Source: Candidatus Jorgensenbacteria bacterium | GTDB lineage: Bacteria > Patescibacteriota > Minisyncoccia > UBA6257 > GWB1-50-10 | Direction: 5' to 3' | Assembly (NCBI GenBank): GCA_030648515.1 | Contig: JAUSHK010000005.1 | Span: 228,895 to 278,130 of the forward strand | DNA: 49,236 nucleotides | Part shown: positions 1 through 41,282 of the stretch, one piece after another | Layout of the letters: each line of letters opens with the position of its first letter | How positions within the stretch are numbered: the stretch's first letter is position 1 | Position numbers and translations under genes: made by a program | The notes under the pieces: generated by a model | Databases searched by the model: none | Told to the model about the DNA's origin: nothing | What the model saw: only the letters and a program-made list of their open reading frames with translations

Positions 1-1258
1 GCGTGGCCGGAGAAAGTATCACATCTACTCCGCCAGATTGCGGGTTAAATGCTTTTTTAAAATCTTCCGTGATAAGCTTGCGGACTTTCTGCGCTTTCGC
101 ATAGTAAGCATCGTAATAGCCGGCCGAGAGAACGAATGTTCCTAAAAGAATTCTCCGCTTTACTTCTTCGCCGAATCCTTCTCCCCTTGTTTTGAAATAT
201 AGATCGCGAAGCGTTTCTGCGTCTTTCTTTACTTCAGGAATCCCGCCGTAGCGCTTGCGGTGAGCTACGCCGAACCGAATACCGTCATATCGCGCCATGT
301 TCGCCGAAACTTCCGCGGGCATTACAATGTAATACGTTGAAAGCGCGTACTTCGTGTGCGGAAGCGAGATTTCTTTTATTTTGAATCCGCCATCCTTTAG
401 TTTCTGAATCGCTTTTTCTATTTCTTTTTTAACTTCTGCGTCCATTCCCTCCACGAAATACTCTTTCGGAATGCCAATGGTCAGTTTTTTTACTCCGTCA
501 AAATCAGGATTGAGTAAATTTTCGTCATACTCGGCGTCAACACTCGTGGCGTCATATTCATCTTTGCCGCGAATAGCATTAAAAAGAATCGCCGCGTCTT
601 CAACGGTCTTCGTAATCGGGCCAATCTGGTCTAGGCTCGACGCCATCGCCATAAGCCCGAACCGCGAAACCGCGCCGTAGGTTGGTTTTAAGCCGACTAC
701 CCCGCAGAATGCCGCCGGCTGGCGTATAGAGCCGCCAGTGTCGGAACCGAGCGCCGCGAGCGCAAGTCCGCCTGAAACTGCCGCAGCTGAACCGCCAGAC
801 GAACCGCCAGGCACGCGTTCCAAATCATGTGGGTTTTTTGTAATCTGGAACCCTGAGTTTTCAGTTGACGAACCCATCGCGAACTCATCGAGATTTGTTT
901 TTCCTAAAAATACCGCGCGCGCGCCTTTTAACTTTTTTATAACCGTCGCGTCATATGATGCTTTGTACGTTTTTAAAATTTTTGATGCCGCCGTCGCGCG
1001 CGCGCCTTCAATTACTATACTGTCTTTTATCGCCAGCGGTACGCCTGTAAGCGCTCCGGCGTCGCCTGACGCAATGGCCTCGTCCGCGATTTCTGCTTCT
1101 TTAATTGCTTCATGCTCAAAAACCGTAAGATACGCGCCAAATTTTTCATCTTTGTCTTTTATAGCGCGCAGAAACGCATCCGTCGCTTCTCGCGCAGAGA
1201 ATTCCTTTTTACGCAAACTTTTCGAGAACGAAGAAATGGTGAGTGAATCCAAATTCAT
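1..1258 (-). CDS. gatA: Asp/Glu-tRNA amidotransferase subunit A (runs off the left edge of the window)
   Basis: Manual minus-strand translation from ATG 1258 gives the amidase signature motifs GKTNLDEFAMGSSTENS, VPGGSSGGSAAA and GSDTGGSIRQPA. It lies directly downstream of gatC and is absent from the ORF track because its stop is outside the window. Confidence 0.95.
   Translation of the reverse strand, partial: MNLDSLTISSFSKSLRKKEFSAREATDAFLRAIKDKDEKFGAYLTVFEHEAIKEAEIADEAIASGDAGALTGVPLAIKDSIVIEGARATAASKILKTYKASYDATVIKKLKGARAVFLGKTNLDEFAMGSSTENSGFQITKNPHDLERVPGGSSGGSAAAVSGGLALAALGSDTGGSIRQPAAFCGVVGLKPTYGAVSRFGLMAMASSLDQIGPITKTVEDAAILFNAIRGKDEYDATSVDAEYDENLLNPDFDGVKKLTIGIPKEYFVEGMDAEVKKEIEKAIQKLKDGGFKIKEISLPHTKYALSTYYIVMPAEVSANMARYDGIRFGVAHRKRYGGIPEVKKDAETLRDLYFKTRGEGFGEEVKRRILLGTFVLSAGYYDAYYAKAQKVRKLITEDFKKAFNPQSGGVDVILSPAT
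253..276. repeat. 24-nt in-frame inserted element, copy 1 (in gatA)
   Basis: gcttgcggtgagctacgccgaacc; removing it restores the conserved GatA motif RYDGIRYG. Confidence 0.85.
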
Positions 1259-1260
1259 GT

Positions 1261-1572
1261 TTATTCAAAAACCGGCGGGATTTTCAAAAATCCGCCTTCT
1301 TTTTCAGGGAAAGCTTCGGTGGACTTTTCAGTTTTAAAATCCGAATGTTTTAACTCGTCATCGCGAAATCCGTTTCTATTCTGTGTTCCGCTTGTGGTGA
1401 GCTGGGCCGAACTACCGGTCATAGGCTCAACCGAGTTCGTAGTAACCTCACTGAGTTCCTTAACGTGCGCAAGAATTTCCTCAAGATCACGCGCGAGTTT
1501 CTTTTTTTGCTCGGGGGAAACTTCAATTCTCGCGAGTTCCGCAAGATGTTCTATTTCATTCTCGGATATCAT
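1261..1572 (-). CDS. gatC: Asp/Glu-tRNA amidotransferase subunit C
   Basis: IEHLAELARI...EILAHVKELSEV...FRDDE...GFLKIPPVF; adjacent to gatA. Confidence 0.95.
   Translation of the reverse strand: MISENEIEHLAELARIEVSPEQKKKLARDLEEILAHVKELSEVTTNSVEPMTGSSAQLTTSGTQNRNGFRDDELKHSDFKTEKSTEAFPEKEGGFLKIPPVFE
1390..1413. repeat. 24-nt in-frame inserted element, copy 2 (in gatC)
   Basis: gcttgtggtgagctgggccgaact encodes SSAQLTTS; removing it gives EPMTGGTQ. Confidence 0.8.
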
Positions 1573-1592
1573 ATTGAACCAGTGTAACTGCT

Positions 1593-3665
1593 CTACTTCA
1601 AGAGTTCAAGAAACTCCCTTTCAGTTATGATTTTCACCCCGAGCTCTTTTGCTTTATCAAACTTCGAACCTGGGTTTTCGCCTGCAACTACATAGCTTGT
1701 TTTAGATGAGACGGATTCCGAAACATCTCCTCCGTACGAGCGGATTTTTTGTTTCGCCTCGTCGCGTGACATAACCGACAAAGTTCCGGTTACGACAAAG
1801 GTTTTTCCTTTCAGCTTTTTATTGGTGATAATCTCGCGCTCGGACTCCAGCTTTATGTCCACATCGCCAAATTTGCATAACAATTTTATATTTCTGTCTT
1901 CCTTAAACCAGTTAACAATGCTTTCCGCGACTTTAGGGCCTATTCCTGAAACTTTCTGGACTTCTTCTGCTGATAGATTCTCAAATTTCTTTTTGAAGTC
2001 CGCCACGGAAAACGTTTTTGCGTGCGACGGAGGGAATTCCCGCGCGAGAAGAATTGCCGTTTCTTCCCCCACGTGCTGGATTCCCAAACTAAAAATAAAT
2101 CGCTCAAGTTTTATAGTTTTTTTCGTTTCAATTTCGCGCGTTATGTTTTCGGCTGATTTTTCCCCGAATCTCTCTAAAACTGAGATATCTCCTTTCTCTA
2201 ATTTAAAAATGTCGGCCGCGTCCGCAATCAACCCCTCGTCCAGAAAACGATCAATTATTTCTTCCCCGAGTCCGCGAATATCAAACGCGTGCCGCGAGAC
2301 AAAGTGCGACAAGGATTCCTTGACCCGCGCGCCGCATTTCGGATTTGAACAGCGATACAGCGCTCCTTCATGGATAACCCTTGAGCCGTCCACCGGGCAC
2401 TTTTCCGGCACGGTGAATTTCTTCTCCTTCCCCGTACGAAGATCAACTAGTACTTTCGTTATCTGAGGAATCACGTCTCCCGCGCGGCTCACAACGACCG
2501 TATCCCCGATTTTTATACCAAGCCTGCCTATTTCATCAAAATTATGAAGGGTTGCGTGGCTTATACGGACTCCCCCGACTTCCACCGGCTCAAGAACTGC
2601 GACAGGCGTAAGAACGCCGGTTCTCCCAACCTGGATTTTTATGTCTTTCACTATTGTTGTTTTTTCTTTCGGCGCGAACTTGTATGCTATTGCTCCTCGC
2701 GGAGCTTTTCCGACAACGCCCGCCGCCGCGGCTAAACGATTCTCGTTTATAATAATAACCGTCCCGTCAATTTCATATGGCAATTTTTTCCTATTCTTTT
2801 CCCAGTGATCCCTGAACGTGAATATGCCGTCCAATGAGTTAACTTTTTTGTTATGAGGATTTGTTTTGAAACCAAACGCCCTAAGAATCAAATGCTCTTC
2901 TTCGTGGGTTTTCTGCCCGACGTCGGTTACTAAATCATATTGGTATGAATCAAGCTTTCTTGACGCGGCGATTTTCGGGTCAAGCTGGCGTATGGAGCCG
3001 GCCGCGATGTTCCGCGGATTGGCATACAATTTTTCTTCTTTCTTCCCCTGTTCCCTGTTTATCCGCTCAAATTCTTTTGTCGTCAAAAAAACTTCGCCGC
3101 GCACGACGAGTTTTTTAGGAATTGCGAGCGAGGACGCGCGCAATCCAAGAGCTTTCATATTTTTTTCTACTTCATCTTTATCAAACAGTGTAAGCGGAAT
3201 TGCTTCCACGGTTTTGAGATTTTGCGTCACGTTTTCCCCTATTATTCCGTTTCCGCGCGTTGACCCTTCCACAAATACGCCGTTTTCATATGTCAGCTCA
3301 ATTGAGAAACCATCAAGCTTAAGCTCGCAATAAAATTCTTTTACTTTTTCGCCCATGAATTTCTCTGTCCGTTTAAGCCAATCTTTAACGTCTTCTCTTG
3401 AAAACGTGTCGTTCAGTGATATCATCGGCTCTTCGTGCCGGACTTTTTTAAACGCTTTGAGCGGCTCGCCGCCCACGCGCCGAGTCGGCGAATCCGGCGT
3501 TATCAAATCAGGGAACTTTAGTTCAAGATCAAAGAGTTCTTTTTTAAGCGAATCGAGAGCCTCGTCGGAAATTAATTGCTTATCGAGCACGTGGTATGCG
3601 TACCGATATTTGTTGATTTCCTTCCGAAGCTTTTCGATTCGTGTTTTTGCTTCGTTATTATCCAT
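1593..3665 (-). CDS. ligA: NAD-dependent DNA ligase
   Basis: ELKLDG adenylation motif, RGEVF, ANPRNIAAGS, Zn finger (CPVD...C...C) and a C-terminal BRCT domain (FVVTGTL...GSKFDKAKELGV). Confidence 0.98.
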   Translation of the reverse strand: MDNNEAKTRIEKLRKEINKYRYAYHVLDKQLISDEALDSLKKELFDLELKFPDLITPDSPTRRVGGEPLKAFKKVRHEEPMISLNDTFSREDVKDWLKRTEKFMGEKVKEFYCELKLDGFSIELTYENGVFVEGSTRGNGIIGENVTQNLKTVEAIPLTLFDKDEVEKNMKALGLRASSLAIPKKLVVRGEVFLTTKEFERINREQGKKEEKLYANPRNIAAGSIRQLDPKIAASRKLDSYQYDLVTDVGQKTHEEEHLILRAFGFKTNPHNKKVNSLDGIFTFRDHWEKNRKKLPYEIDGTVIIINENRLAAAAGVVGKAPRGAIAYKFAPKEKTTIVKDIKIQVGRTGVLTPVAVLEPVEVGGVRISHATLHNFDEIGRLGIKIGDTVVVSRAGDVIPQITKVLVDLRTGKEKKFTVPEKCPVDGSRVIHEGALYRCSNPKCGARVKESLSHFVSRHAFDIRGLGEEIIDRFLDEGLIADAADIFKLEKGDISVLERFGEKSAENITREIETKKTIKLERFIFSLGIQHVGEETAILLAREFPPSHAKTFSVADFKKKFENLSAEEVQKVSGIGPKVAESIVNWFKEDRNIKLLCKFGDVDIKLESEREIITNKKLKGKTFVVTGTLSVMSRDEAKQKIRSYGGDVSESVSSKTSYVVAGENPGSKFDKAKELGVKIITEREFLELLK

Positions 3666-3683
3666 GATGTTTAACAGTTATCT

Positions 3684-4160
3684 TTAGAATTTTGTTGTGA
3701 CGCGCGTTTCAAGTTCCCGCTGCGCCTTTCCGGAGTCGCCGTACGAACGCACAGTAAATCCGACTGGCAATTGCCCTTGTGTAGGGTTTTGAGAATCAAA
3801 ACGAAAAGTGAGTGAGCTTGAATAACTTGTAGAACCCGCGATAATTCCATTTGCGCCATAATATTCTCGACTTGGGACAATTTCACTTGGAAGAATCGGC
3901 GGTTGGTTAAAGTAATTATAGAGCGCTTGTTCTATGCCGGCGTCTGCGGCGAAAAAGGCCTTCATTGATTCAACTGTATCGTTTGCCTGGCGGATTTGAT
4001 AGGCGGTGAGAAGCCCAGCGACGACGCTGGCGCTCATAAGTGCTCCGCTCAATATAATGACGCTCACAAGTATCACTTGTCCTGAGCGTTGTCGAAGTAC
4101 TTGCCCTCCGATCCGATGTCTTTTTTTTGCTATTTTTGTGTTCATTAAATTAAAATTCAT
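3684..4160 (-). CDS. minor pilin, PilX-like
   Basis: Basic N-terminus, G|QV followed by a hydrophobic segment, then AFFAADAGIEQAL; last gene of the minor-pilin run. Confidence 0.75.
   Translation of the reverse strand: MNFNLMNTKIAKKRHRIGGQVLRQRSGQVILVSVIILSGALMSASVVAGLLTAYQIRQANDTVESMKAFFAADAGIEQALYNYFNQPPILPSEIVPSREYYGANGIIAGSTSYSSSLTFRFDSQNPTQGQLPVGFTVRSYGDSGKAQRELETRVTTKF
4075..4098. repeat. 24-nt in-frame inserted element, copy 3 (in the PilX-like gene)
   Basis: acttgtcctgagcgttgtcgaagt encodes LRQRSGQV; removing it gives GGQVILV. Confidence 0.8.
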
Positions 4161-4702
4161 TAGTGAATGTCTCTTGGGAGCGTGCGCGGGCTCACGGTTG
4201 TTTCTATATTCATAGATTTTCCAGCAAGACGCGGGTCAGTTGACCCGATTTTCATAAGTATCGTGACTCTCCACGGAAGTTCGGCGTTGGTCTGGTTTAC
4301 TTTAAAACAGATGGATTCTATGCGGATGTTTGATGAATTGAGCGTCGATGGGCTTGCATTGTTTACGCTTCGCTTAATAGAATTTCCCTCTAATCTGTAT
4401 CTCACCTGATCTACACTGCCCGTTGTGGCCGGGAAGCGATTAAAAGTTAGGTCGTTGCTGCATACGCCTCCTGCGGGAGAAAATTCGTAACCTACCCTGA
4501 TTTCGCGCATCATTTGCTCAATCATAAGCCCCGCATTGCTGTTTCGCTGTATTAATGAGTTCAACAGTTTCTGCGAACTCAGTGCCTGGCCGAAAACGCC
4601 GACTATTATTGAAATTGCAAATGCAAAAAGCCCCGCCGCTATAATGAGCTCAACAAGCGTGAAGCCGCCTATGCGTCGTGAGTTTGTTTTATTTATCTCC
4701 AT
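4160..4702 (-). CDS. minor pilin, PilW-like (start moved to ATG 4702)
   Basis: Class III signal peptide G|FTLVELIIA. Confidence 0.8.
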   Translation of the reverse strand: MEINKTNSRRIGGFTLVELIIAAGLFAFAISIIVGVFGQALSSQKLLNSLIQRNSNAGLMIEQMMREIRVGYEFSPAGGVCSNDLTFNRFPATTGSVDQVRYRLEGNSIKRSVNNASPSTLNSSNIRIESICFKVNQTNAELPWRVTILMKIGSTDPRLAGKSMNIETTVSPRTLPRDIH

Positions 4703-5172
4703 CTTTTGAATATATCCCGCACTTCGACGGACTGGTCTTTTGCGCGAGCATTCCATGAAACTTTGGCAATTACAGTTACACTATCAGTGTCATTTATAAT
4801 CTGAATTGTCCGCGTATAAGGCGTGGGATTACCATTATCATATTGGTACTCGCCGCCATCCGGCGGTAATTTCAATTTAGTCCCCGTCGTTTGCCGCAAA
4901 ATTGGGTCCGCAGCGCTTGTTTTATACAATCCATCATTAACATCCGTATTCCATATAGCGCCATTCGCAACATTTGTATCAATAATATTTTTTACAATCT
5001 CAATTCCCTCTGCGGCAAGGTATGTAGCGACAAATTTTTGGCTCGCGTCGTTTGTAAATGCGAGCGACGCCGAAACAAGTGCGAGGACGCCGAGGAGCCC
5101 GACAAGCGCGATTGATATTGCAACCATTGCCTCAACAATTGTCTGCCCACTGACATTTTTATACATAATCAC
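4693..5172 (-). CDS. minor pilin, PilV-like
   Basis: G|QTIVEAMVAI prepilin motif and YLAAEGIE. Confidence 0.8.
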   Translation of the reverse strand: MIMYKNVSGQTIVEAMVAISIALVGLLGVLALVSASLAFTNDASQKFVATYLAAEGIEIVKNIIDTNVANGAIWNTDVNDGLYKTSAADPILRQTTGTKLKLPPDGGEYQYDNGNPTPYTRTIQIINDTDSVTVIAKVSWNARAKDQSVEVRDIFKRWR

Positions 5173-5702
5173 TCGGTATTAATTTGCCCGCCTTGCGTAA
5201 TAGTGACTTTTGCTATTCGAGAATTGTCCGCGTTCTGGATTGTTATTATAAACGGCAGCGACGATCCCTCAAGTCTTAAATCCGGCGGCACAAAAATTAT
5301 ATCTTGGCCAATGCCTGACGTGAATGAAAGTCGCTTATCAAGTGAAAAACTTTCAAGCTCCTCACTGAGATCATATTGGTAGTTTGACGCTGGTTGTCCA
5401 TTATCATTAATACACGGGAGATTTGCGGAGCTCTTTTTGTCGGCAAAAATAAAGAAATCTCTCTCGCTATTAATACGCACCCCAAATGCGCAGGCATTTA
5501 GGGCTTTATTATTAGCATCAACACTAAGTTTCTGCTGCGCAAGCGCTTTCGCGCGGTTTATTGCCCCAACAAGCAGTGCCTGGTCCTTAAACAGCGCAAC
5601 TTGCTCGTCCGCGGTTCTGTTGTACCCAACGAAAAGCCCCGAGAGCAGCATCATTATGCCAATAACGACTATCGTCTCCACGAGCGTGAAACCTTTTTCC
5701 AT
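5169..5702 (-). CDS. minor pilin, FimT/FimU-like
   Basis: KG|FTLVETIVVI prepilin motif. Confidence 0.8.
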   Translation of the reverse strand: MEKGFTLVETIVVIGIMMLLSGLFVGYNRTADEQVALFKDQALLVGAINRAKALAQQKLSVDANNKALNACAFGVRINSERDFFIFADKKSSANLPCINDNGQPASNYQYDLSEELESFSLDKRLSFTSGIGQDIIFVPPDLRLEGSSLPFIITIQNADNSRIAKVTITQGGQINTE

Positions 5703-5796
5703 AGTATTCGCTTTATTATACCTCCTGCGCCGTCGAGTGGCTAATAAATAATCTACGCCAACAGGATTATCGGTAGAGGCAAACTAACCAAATTTT

Positions 5797-6711
5797 TTAT
5801 AAGCCGAATAATGTAAAATACCCCTTCAAAATCGCTTCGCCGAAGAAAAATACCAAAGCAATACCAATAACAAAAAAGGGAGCAAAGGGAACCCTATCCT
5901 TCATACTGAGTCGTCCGGAAATAAGTAGATATGCGCCAAAAATTCCTCCAAGAATAAATGCAATAACAACCGCAAGCGCCATATCCGGCCACCCTAGAAG
6001 AAAGCCCGAGGCGAGCGCGAGCTTTACGTCTCCAAACCCCATACCCTGCCCGCGGCTCGCGAAAGAAAGGAGCGCAAAAAACACCGCGGCCGTAAACGCG
6101 CCTATCACGTGGCTTAAAAGCAGATTTCCGGTTGGCGCGAGAAAAAGCGAGTATTGTTTCAAAAATGATGTAGAAAAAAGCGGGAGTTCGTTTTTGTACT
6201 TCCACATGATTCCAACCACGATAATTCCTAAAACTCCCAAAATGACATTTAATTCGTTCGGCACTACATAATGTTTAAGATCAATAAGTAGCACGAGAAG
6301 CAAAATGATAAAAACAAGAATCCACGCGCCAAGAAGCGCGTAGTGCCACCACGGAGCCGCGAGCGAAGCGAATACGAAATCAGGCACGCTGTATATTGAG
6401 TTTAGGTAATACGCAACTGCAACCGCGATAAGCCCTCCTAAAAATTCAATGATTGGGTACTGTATAGAAAGCGGCGCGCCGCACGATCTGCACTTTCCAC
6501 GCAGGACGGCAAAACTTACAAGAGGAAAAAGCTCAAACCATGTGAGCTTTTTCTTGCATTTCATGCAATGCGATCTTCCACCAATGCTTTTTTCCGCAAA
6601 AACGCTTCTCTCCGGAGCATACCGCATTGAGAGAACGTTTAAAAAACTCCCGAGCGCGGAGCCGATTATAAACAGCGCTCCGTACGCGATAATCTCAACT
6701 GTTATAGGCAT
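5797..6711 (-). CDS. pilD: prepilin peptidase/N-methyltransferase (A24)
   Basis: GSFLNV, RSHCxxC...RGKCxxC, IDLKH, GMGFGDVKL and PFAPF. Confidence 0.95.
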   Translation of the reverse strand: MPITVEIIAYGALFIIGSALGSFLNVLSMRYAPERSVFAEKSIGGRSHCMKCKKKLTWFELFPLVSFAVLRGKCRSCGAPLSIQYPIIEFLGGLIAVAVAYYLNSIYSVPDFVFASLAAPWWHYALLGAWILVFIILLLVLLIDLKHYVVPNELNVILGVLGIIVVGIMWKYKNELPLFSTSFLKQYSLFLAPTGNLLLSHVIGAFTAAVFFALLSFASRGQGMGFGDVKLALASGFLLGWPDMALAVVIAFILGGIFGAYLLISGRLSMKDRVPFAPFFVIGIALVFFFGEAILKGYFTLFGL

Positions 6712-26533: not shown

Positions 26534-26550
26534 GATGAGCTTGTCGAATG
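26534..26550. repeat. partial intergenic copy of the 24-nt element core
   Basis: gatgagcttgtcgaatg shares the TGAGC-n-GTCGAA core. Confidence 0.5.
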
Positions 26551-40817: not shown

Positions 40818-41282
40818 ATGAATAAAACTCTTGTTGCGGTCCTTGCCGTGGTCGTTCTCGCGGTCGTCGCCTTTGGCGGATTCTACTTCGGCTCCGCGCA
40901 GGGCAAACTGGCGACTGAGAAAAAACTGGCGCCGCTTTTGAACAGCGCGTTTCCCAAACCTCCCGACGACATCCGCTTTTTGGACGGGATTGTGAAAAGC
41001 GTTTCCGGCTCGGCGATTGATCTTGAAATTGATAATATAGACGATTACATTCCGCATACTGACGGAACGCCTCGCCTTAAAGACGTGCGGCACGCCATCG
41101 TTTCGGATAAAACCACTATTACGCTGATTGATTTGGGAAAGTTCACGTCAAATGGGCAACCGACAAGGACTATTGTTAAACTCTCCGACATCAAGCCCGG
41201 CATGAATGCGACGGCGCGAAGCGGGGTAAATGTCAGAAACGTAAAAACATTTGACGCAACATCCATAGAGGTAATTCAGTAA
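40818..41282 (+). CDS. membrane-anchored hypothetical protein with a beta-rich extracellular domain
   Basis: N-terminal TM, GIVKSVSG and LSDIKPG. Confidence 0.75.
   Translation: MNKTLVAVLAVVVLAVVAFGGFYFGSAQGKLATEKKLAPLLNSAFPKPPDDIRFLDGIVKSVSGSAIDLEIDNIDDYIPHTDGTPRLKDVRHAIVSDKTTITLIDLGKFTSNGQPTRTIVKLSDIKPGMNATARSGVNVRNVKTFDATSIEVIQ

Follow-up and report, generated by a model that had tools for sequence, protein, structure and literature searches.

Small dispersed repeats (SDRs) of Nostoc punctiforme and its relatives, designated SDR1 to SDR8, reportedly measure 21 to 27 nt. They are said to form hairpins that are backed by compensatory changes, to nest in their own copies, and to occur often within heptamer tandem repeats, and they have reportedly been proposed as the smallest mobile elements. 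MITEs, usually longer than 50 bp, are bounded by terminal inverted repeats and target-site duplications, and the substrates of the IS608 and RAYT enzymes are hairpins with a conserved single-stranded tail. SDRs are reported as confined to Nostocaceae (PMC5861425), and the REPIN paper names them as possible relatives (PMC3116915). Rickettsia palindromic elements (RPEs) are about 150 bp long (PMC10969869) and encode a conserved peptide of their own in one frame. Here, we analyze a 24-nt repeat found in a 49,236-nt stretch of DNA (the window) from a Candidatus Jorgensenbacteria genome, the host being a small groundwater bacterium.

A motif search within the window placed three 24-nt copies exactly at positions 253 to 276, 1390 to 1413, and 4075 to 4098, all on the minus strand and in three different reading phases. 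As these founder copies are antisense to the written strand of the window, the gene-sense form of the element is the reverse complement of the consensus given in the sequence-only reading of this DNA. The first copy (gene sense, GGTTCGGCGTAGCTCACCGCAAGC; exact match; nhmmer E = 2.8e-4) lies in gatA (positions 2 to 1258, minus strand), an amidase family gene truncated by the window edge (Pfam Amidase, E = 6.3e-127; best E against PDB GatA chains, 3.3e-124), and is translated as (R)FGVAHRK(R). The second (gene sense, AGTTCGGCCCAGCTCACCACAAGC; exact match; nhmmer E = 3.3e-4) is translated as SSAQLTTS in gatC (1261 to 1572, minus strand; Pfam GatC, E = 1.3e-13, with matches to PDB GatC chains as well). 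The third (exact match; nhmmer E = 4.6e-5) encodes LRQRSGQV at the N terminus of a PilX-like pseudopilin, a minor pilin (3684 to 4160, minus strand) that has no Pfam match and has orthologues in 39 of 41 relatives. The left flank of this copy, GGGCAAGT, is a near repeat of the element tail (8/9 bases of the flank match). Three N_methyl pseudopilin genes come after the PilX-like gene. A fourth copy on the plus strand, at 40885 to 40908 (ACTTCGGCTCCGCGCAGGGCAAAC; two mismatches to the earlier consensus; nhmmer E = 0.0033), is in sense orientation and is translated as (Y)FGSAQGK within a 154-aa open reading frame (ORF) of unknown family (40818 to 41282), for which no Pfam family was found. An intergenic sequence at 26534 to 26550 (minus strand) has only the 13-nt core, TGAGCTTGTCGAA, without a paired stem or the CAAG tail, and was not reported by nhmmer at E ≤ 20; at most, it represents a copy that has decayed.

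The consensus was derived from these same copies, which makes shuffle tests on the window circular, and we therefore used genome-wide nulls in their place. The sequence-only reading had staked its claim of an inserted element on the motif being commoner than in shuffled sequence, and it is. The consensus had nine matches in the genome at up to two mismatches (six besides the founders) and 12 at up to three, compared with means of 0.025 and 0.475, respectively, in 40 third-order Markov genomes. A census with a hidden Markov model (nhmmer) returned 27 copies at E ≤ 1 in the 690.8-kb genome, compared with 0 to 3 matches in each of 10 null genomes. At E ≤ 0.1, there were 26 matches in the genome and none in the null genomes.

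Sixteen of the 27 copies lie within long ORFs. Their hosts include GyrA, UvrB, UvrC, LeuRS, and GlyRS, along with GatA, GatC, Fmt, Tgt, RarA, and HolB. All 16 are in sense orientation (none antisense), leave the frame intact, and contain no stops; together they cover all three phases, with peptides of the FGxxQxK, LRxxSGQx, and SSxxLTTS types. Among the relatives, 38 genic copies are sense and 7 antisense, and copies in long ORFs also keep the frame and are stop free. The element is apparently tolerated in essential genes because its length is a multiple of three and it lacks stops. Intergenic copies were found in both orientations. One of them makes up the entire 26-nt spacer between adk and map and adjoins the map start codon; a single gene split by an antisense copy was considered for adk and map and rejected, as both are complete ORFs.

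Deletion of the 24 nt had been described as restoring an uninterrupted sequence in all three founder genes, and a clean indel was confirmed in two of them. GatA has a clean 8-aa insertion, GIR[FGVAHRKR]YGG, present in 0 of 29 aligned relatives, and GatC has another, PMTG[SSAQLTTS]GT, present in 0 of 27. These relatives are distant (GatA identity, ≤69%), and finding the same eight residues among them would have spoken against an insertion. In alignments to PDB chains of GatA and GatC, the query is about 9 to 11 residues longer at the site, with gaps that are not clean. For the pilin, an 8-aa indel relative to the orthologues cannot be proven: a conserved xGQ[VA] motif precedes the hydrophobic helix in 30 of 30 orthologues, the leader varies in length, and the motif region is doubled (GGQV-LRQRSGQV) in the window pilin and in a same-genus relative. 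Elsewhere in the genome, the short form of UvrB is found in 15 of the 21 orthologues that cover the site, and the LeuRS insert is missing in 18 of 22. The UvrB site is common to three genera and the LeuRS site to several genomes, a distribution that could reflect old inheritance and loss instead of repeated insertion. In the relative G004, the orthologous UvrB copy has decayed at the DNA level and is still in frame, and variants with a 23-nt core likewise yield a net in-frame insertion. We also looked for filled and empty sites in two DNA contig runs, one a possible source of the window DNA (X1) and the other from a relative (X2). Neither contained a 24-nt skip, and one contig of the related strain (X2, record 9) runs across the gatA copy without a gap; since contigs drop rare variants, such gapless contigs are uninformative on excision.

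The unit has the form xxx-TTCGRC-N2-3-GCTCA-yyy-CAAG. The GatC boundaries, together with the inner units where copies are nested, set its length at 24 nt. Partial covariation of the triplets flanking the core in three copies had been taken as a sign of an imperfect hairpin. The hairpin signal is real and much stronger than three copies can show: when we scanned with the stem positions left free, we obtained 126 copies from many phyla, in which three stem pairs covary. The main pair types were CG (53) and UA (47) in one pair; CG (64), AU (22), and GC (22) in another; and CG (89), GC (8), and UA (8) in the remaining one. Double-change cells numbered 110, compared with 44.2 ± 6.8 after shuffling (0 of 500 shuffles reached the observed value), and slid controls were all low. 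While the stem covaries, the 11-base core is invariant among very distant phyla. The ratio of A.C to G.T mismatches, which bears on the strand that folds, gave a mixed picture: it was 25:4 for the broad set but 4:4 for this genome, and the relatives had 10:6. Folded by minimum free energy on either strand, the four copies of the window were not unusually stable (z-scores, 0.10 to 1.68). Rfam returned no match at the element sites in window positions 1 to 5000 at E ≤ 10 and nothing at the gathering score in 18 loci totaling 142,951 nt. With three phases used in 16 genes, orthologues that lack the insert, and a covarying stem, the proposal of a very small element whose conservation lies in the nucleic acid and not in the peptide is supported.

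Eight of the 126 copies from the cross-phylum set interrupt a second copy at its apical loop. Inspection by eye placed the inner unit two bases past TTCGRC in 8 of 8 cases; no nested copies were seen in the genome of the window itself. Relatives carry in-frame tandem direct arrays of up to four units. The flanks resemble the element at a 24-nt shift, with 108 of 270 positions matching compared with a null of 66.4 ± 7.1 (0 of 5,000), in a test that takes in two tandem cases and one misanchored copy. Of the 41 relatives, 18 carry an exact match, as do 68 of the 401 genomes from the phylum; the reversed control scored 0 of 41 and 0 of 401. The same architecture also appears in loci titled Chloroflexota, Acidobacteria, Bacteroidota, Leptospiraceae, Omnitrophica, and others. 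In the literature that we searched, no paper described the element in CPR genomes or reported in-frame repeats of 24 nt.

Multiple copies, three phases, clean indels, covariation, self-nesting at a fixed loop position, and a patchy spread in the phylum and outside it are what we observed. At a probability of roughly 0.7, we read them as a family of very small, 24-nt nonautonomous repeats of a mobile, SDR-like type that are translated through. Each unit would consist of a covarying stem of 3 to 4 bp, an invariant asymmetric core (TTCGRC ... GCTCA), an apical loop of 2 to 3 nt, and a 3' CAAG(Y) tail. Insertions would have taken place at numerous sites here and in the genomes of relatives, and the survivors within genes would be stop-free insertions of 3n length in tolerant surface loops, translated as eight extra residues that are mostly small and polar. 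Insertion may be a structure-directed, single-strand event (on DNA or RNA) carried out by a candidate trans-acting factor, and targets similar to the tail-head junction of the element appear to be favored. The sense-strand bias of genic copies would mainly reflect selection on the peptide that they encode. More tentatively, one structured 24-nt element might be common to many phyla and insert, without a dedicated transposase, into itself at a fixed apical-loop position and into junction-like targets. If so, the mover would be a conserved host activity, or the element would pass through an RNA or single-stranded DNA intermediate. No known class of mobile DNA would then be smaller or more widespread, and ultrasmall genomes would steadily gain 8-residue loops in essential enzymes through it.

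In principle, the copies could resemble one another by coincidence, or because of a low-complexity or protein-level motif that they share: by simple arithmetic, one pair of 24-mers with 20/24 identity is not rare in 49 kb, and the pilin copy overlaps the family-wide xGQV motif. The genome-wide excess, the three phases, the covariation, and the empty reversed controls (0/41 and 0/401) already refute this account, to which we give next to no credence. It is also highly improbable that the 24 nt are skipped or removed at the RNA or translation level (by a mini-intron or ribosomal bypass), so that the host proteins would be unaltered. The element is structured, has a conserved core, and sits in highly conserved enzymes, and the translational bypass elements known from yeast mitochondria offer a possible analogy. 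However, the frame is kept and stop free in 16 of 16 genic copies and in the long ORFs of the relatives, which would be needless if the element were removed, and the 23-nt-core variants, the decayed G004 UvrB copy, and the arrays of up to four units are all in frame. The earlier suggestion of removal at the RNA level is thus not supported.

A functional cis-signal kept by selection and tolerated by coincidence in coding sequence, such as a site or structure bound by a conserved host protein or a DNA-uptake or recombination signal, is an unlikely explanation. The combination of an invariant 11-base core and a covarying stem across distant phyla points to a conserved recognition factor, searches for a dedicated transposase gave none, and the genic copies follow transcription, with one further copy filling the adk-map spacer at the map start codon. 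A signal of this kind fits poorly with a patchy presence (68 of 401 phylum genomes and 18 of 41 relatives), a low copy number (27), unconserved positions among orthologues, nesting and tandem arrays, and the decay of the UvrB copy in G004. Rather less probable is a REP/REPIN-type or IS200/IS605-derived palindrome whose Y1 (HUH) transposase is encoded elsewhere or was recently lost. The hairpin, the conserved single-stranded tail, and the lack of an obvious fixed target duplication may be likened to Y1 substrates, and SDRs are named as possible REPIN relatives in the REPIN paper (PMC3116915). Nevertheless, the genome, scored as 100% complete, had no match to PF01797 (Y1_Tnp) at E ≤ 1 (control positive in 10 of 14 genomes) and none to PF07282 (TnpB zinc ribbon), and the copies are mainly intragenic, with arrays that consist of direct tandem repeats instead of inverted doublets. 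The REP-like, RAYT-mobilized element first envisaged was therefore not upheld. DDE_Tnp_1 gave below-cutoff matches only. The genome also contains one RVT_1 ORF, and we rejected a reverse transcriptase (RT) as the mobilizer since it did not co-occur with the element across the 41 relatives (both in 6, element only in 12, RT only in 9, and neither in 14, counts in which related genomes are nonindependent samples).

If the repeats are mobile, 24-nt units would stand at the lower size limit of mobile DNA with no known enzyme to move them, and the old question of how the Nostoc SDRs moved would become testable again. The comparative set is now much wider, spanning many phyla and small genomes by the hundred, and clear sequence rules are in hand: the core does not vary, the stem covaries, and nesting occurs at a fixed site. 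In streamlined CPR-type genomes, even core replication, repair, and translation enzymes accept repeated 8-residue insertions. Spurious "low-complexity" loops are to be expected in annotations, and marker-gene alignments, phylogenies, and ideas on the origin of new protein loops are affected.

The element shares features with several described systems. RPEs are likewise selfish-looking palindromic repeats that sit in frame in unrelated housekeeping genes and are translated (PMC10969869), whereas the present element has 24 nt and is read in three frames as three different peptides. REPs and REPINs are also short, imperfect palindromes with many copies (PMC3116915), but REPs are extragenic, form inverted doublets, and are accompanied by a RAYT gene, while here 16 of 27 copies lie in genes, the units of an array point the same way, and the search for a Y1 transposase gave no match. 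Like the element, MITEs are nonautonomous, and intragenic MITE copies can yield in-frame fusions (PMC10969869); the 24-nt unit differs from them in having one internal hairpin and no fixed duplication. Elements derived from IS200/IS605 differ in that neither TnpA (PF01797) nor TnpB (PF07282) was found here. By its reported architecture, the closest known kind appears to be the Nostoc SDRs. The 24-nt unit falls in the 21- to 27-nt range and has 27 copies in the genome, its hairpin shows compensatory changes in three covarying pairs, and it nests in itself (8 of 126 copies across phyla). A heptamer context was seen at two Nostocales loci (L051 and L137) and a comparable short-repeat context in the relative G014; none was seen around the copies of this genome. 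Unlike SDRs, for which a restriction to Nostocaceae is reported (PMC5861425), the element is found in 68 of 401 CPR-like genomes and in other phyla, and here it lies mostly in frame within essential genes.

The genome that carries the window (G000), recovered from a groundwater metagenome, comprises 690.8 kb in five contigs with 45.5% G+C; the window corresponds to C3:228895-278130. The minus strand at the left end of the window holds gatA, gatC, ligA-like and pilin-like genes. We reproduced the exact positions of the three 24-mers noticed there by the sequence-only reading: in gene sense, GGTTCGGCGTAGCTCACCGCAAGC at 253-276 (gatA), AGTTCGGCCCAGCTCACCACAAGC at 1390-1413 (gatC) and ACTTCGACAACGCTCAGGACAAGT at 4075-4098 (the PilX-like pilin gene). 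The claim that their translation runs in three different phases was borne out. A consensus scan of the window found a fourth copy at 40885-40908. At 26534-26550, where a partial copy had been proposed, the 13-nt core is present; the stem and tail are absent, and the profile used below gave no match. The contig of a related strain (X2, record 13) stops at 1389, abutting the edge of the gatC element at 1390, which may be an assembly break at the repeat or a strain difference. The PilX-like gene belongs to a type IV pilus-like cluster (3684-6711), in which it is followed by three ORFs with weak N_methyl motifs and then by a 304-aa membrane ORF that resembles a prepilin peptidase by eye only.

The consensus derives from the very copies under test, which makes shuffling the window a circular control, and the scan was therefore extended to the whole genome. 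The original consensus matched 9 sites with ≤2 mismatches and 12 with ≤3, against means of 0.025 and 0.475 in 40 third-order Markov genomes. An nhmmer profile of the element (one iteration) gave 27 matches at E≤1, of which 26 also passed E≤0.1; in ten null genomes the corresponding numbers were 0 to 3 and 0. This genome-wide excess over Markov genomes upholds the claim that the motif is a genuine repeat, commoner than in random sequence.

In gene sense, the element reads xxx-TTCGRC-N2-3-GCTCA-yyy-CAAG(Y) over 24 nt, with xxx complementary to yyy, and its copies fall into two length classes one loop base apart. No Rfam family matched it in window positions 1-5000 (E≤10) or, at gathering score, in 18 loci totalling 142,951 nt. 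We scanned across phyla (one genome per species) with the pattern TTCGRC-N2-3-GCTCA-NN-RCAAG, leaving the stem positions free, and obtained at least 120 loci. Among the matches listed, the flanking dinucleotides were Watson-Crick complementary in 94 of 127, where about 8 were expected. In an alignment of 126 distinct copies, again among the matches listed, three stem pairs covary (CG 53/UA 47; CG 64/AU 22/GC 22; CG 89/GC 8/UA 8), with 110 double-change cells versus 44.2 ± 6.8 in shuffles (0/500 reached 110) and low values in all slid controls. The three inner stem pairs are uninformative, as they are fixed by the search pattern. Stem positions were Watson-Crick in 60/78 cases in G000 copies and in 156/183 in copies from relatives. 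The proposal that the bases flanking the core covary as an imperfect hairpin is thus supported by these three pairs among the matches listed. By nearest-neighbour energies the hairpin is not stable (z-scores of 0.10 to 1.68 for the four window copies), and folding would probably require a partner or noncanonical pairs. As read from the sequence, the core would give tandem G·A/A·G mismatches on the antisense strand of the genes. In the broad set, among the matches listed, there were 25 mismatches of the A·C type (G·T wobbles on the antisense strand) and 4 of the G·T type; the counts were 4:4 in G000 and 10:6 in relatives.

Sixteen of the 27 G000 copies lie within long ORFs. Pfam named nine hosts (Tgt, RarA/MgsA, UvrC, Fmt, HolB-like delta', 2-hydroxyacid dehydrogenase, M23 peptidase, GatA and GatC). 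GyrA, UvrB, LeuRS and GlyRS were recognized visually by their conserved motifs, with orthologue searches backing UvrB and LeuRS, and the remaining hosts are the pilin-like gene and two ORFs without a family. All 16 genic copies are in sense orientation and all 16 keep the frame. Since two of the three antisense frames are open, random insertion with survival of open frames only would leave about 40% of copies antisense; on that basis, 0 of 16 would arise with a probability of about 3e-4. Both directions are represented among the other 11 copies, which are located between genes or at ORF edges. One of the antisense copies, outside the window (G000:C3:95744-95771), takes up exactly the 26 nt between adk and map, right next to the start codon of map.

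Clean 8-aa indels had been proposed for all three of these genes. For GatC and GatA the insert is confined to G000: PMTG[SSAQLTTS]GT among 28 GatC orthologues taken from its family and order, and GIR[FGVAHRKR]YGG among 30 GatA orthologues. The chains of solved GatA and GatC structures likewise lack residues here, but the gaps are not clean. For the pilin-like gene an indel is unprovable: xGQ[VA] precedes the hydrophobic helix in 30/30 orthologues, leader lengths vary, and the motif region occurs twice in G000 and its same-genus relative. Three GatA orthologues (from G007, G014 and G021) carry other, longer in-frame inserts a few residues downstream, in nearly the same loop, with sequences including ...RTNAD... 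and ...RINADDTRTNAEDGQYKSVSD...; these may represent a second family of coding-region repeats. In UvrB, the short form YFP-KD-F occurs in 15 of the 21 orthologues covering the site and a form six residues longer in three others; G000 has HSAGSGQA. The copy at the same site in G004 is decayed in DNA yet in frame. In G003, the head of the copy is separated from the GCTCA half by some 30 nt of a further palindromic, GC-rich sequence, perhaps a nested insert from another family. LeuRS has inserts directly ahead of the conserved PFYNLMMFPYPS in 4 of 22 genomes, G000 included; that of G012 is a canonical copy, and in a fifth genome a peptide resembling the element lies a few residues farther upstream. 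In G030, of the same order, in-frame TGA codons (five in the LeuRS match, one in GatA and more in other aminoacyl-tRNA synthetase matches) suggest at the sequence level that TGA may be read as a residue.

Several features point to mobility. Among the matches listed, 8 of the 126 aligned copies are located inside another copy, and by eye the inner unit sits in the apical loop, two bases after TTCGRC, in 8/8. Relatives contain in-frame tandem arrays; an IF-2-like ORF, for instance, has PSTSSGQA four times in a row. The sequence beside a copy is similar to the element's far end, with 108/270 matches at a 24-nt shift versus 66.4 ± 7.1 (0/5000; two tandem cases and one mis-anchored copy included); examples are KPF...KPF (LeuRS), SFG...SFG (Tgt) and GQV...GQV (pilin). 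We infer a preference for targets like the tail-head junction. At loci L204-L209 of G014, five copies identical over 24 nt lie within a larger composite whose short direct repeats (ctacgaat / tatccgaat / ctacaaat) bring to mind the heptamers around Nostocales copies.

A REP-like element mobilized by a RAYT or other HUH enzyme had been suggested. That idea is not supported: neither Y1_Tnp (IS200/RAYT) nor the TnpB zinc ribbon was found in G000, a genome scored 100% complete, and the element is largely genic. DDE_Tnp_1 appeared below the cutoff only, and the one tyrosine recombinase is, by expectation, of the Xer type. The sole RVT_1 ORF (C1:9780-10391, minus strand; 335 aa; E=7.1e-27) was rejected as mobilizer, reverse transcriptase and element being unlinked across 41 relatives (both, 6; element only, 12; reverse transcriptase only, 9; neither, 14). 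No joint skipping the 24 nt was seen in the DNA contigs.

The exact pattern was present in 18 of 41 relatives and, in a sample spanning the phylum, in 68 of 401 genomes; the reversed pattern matched in neither set. The 39 loci around the relatives' matches gave 62 profile matches, 45 of them in ORFs of ≥150 aa (38 sense and 7 antisense, three or four of the latter at ORF edges), counts that are inflated by arrays and paralogues. Locus titles among the cross-phylum matches listed include Nostoc, Nodularia, Chloroflexota, Acidobacteria, Bacteroidota, Leptospiraceae, Omnitrophica and Saccharibacteria. Chance alone would give some 2,000 matches in this 596-Gb collection, and it is the covariation, not the match list, that indicates that most are real. 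In a Nostoc metagenome-assembled genome (L051:3940-4040), a canonical copy stands beside two variant copies that share its core and differ in the tail (…GCTCAGTCGAACG); GATTTTG heptamer repeats surround all three.

The three phases, kept frames, indels and covarying stem support the main proposal of the sequence-only reading, that the element is conserved as nucleic acid and tolerated in genes. The repeat is genuine, structured and 24 nt long, and resembles the small dispersed repeats (SDRs); in this streamlined genome, translation is predicted to run straight through it in at least 16 genes. We found no published account of it in the literature searched. SDRs of Nostoc, the subject of Elhai et al. 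in 2008, reportedly measure 21 to 27 nt and show compensatory hairpin changes, self-nesting and a heptamer context. They are the closest known kind: the element shares their length, compensatory stem changes and self-nesting, and in Nostocales loci a heptamer context was observed that was not seen around the G000 copies. It differs in its taxonomic reach, its mainly genic, in-frame location in G000 and its sense bias. REP/REPIN elements are extragenic and need a RAYT (PMC3116915), and both features fail here. Rickettsia palindromic elements share the in-frame habit within genes but are about 150 bp long and encode one peptide (PMC10969869).
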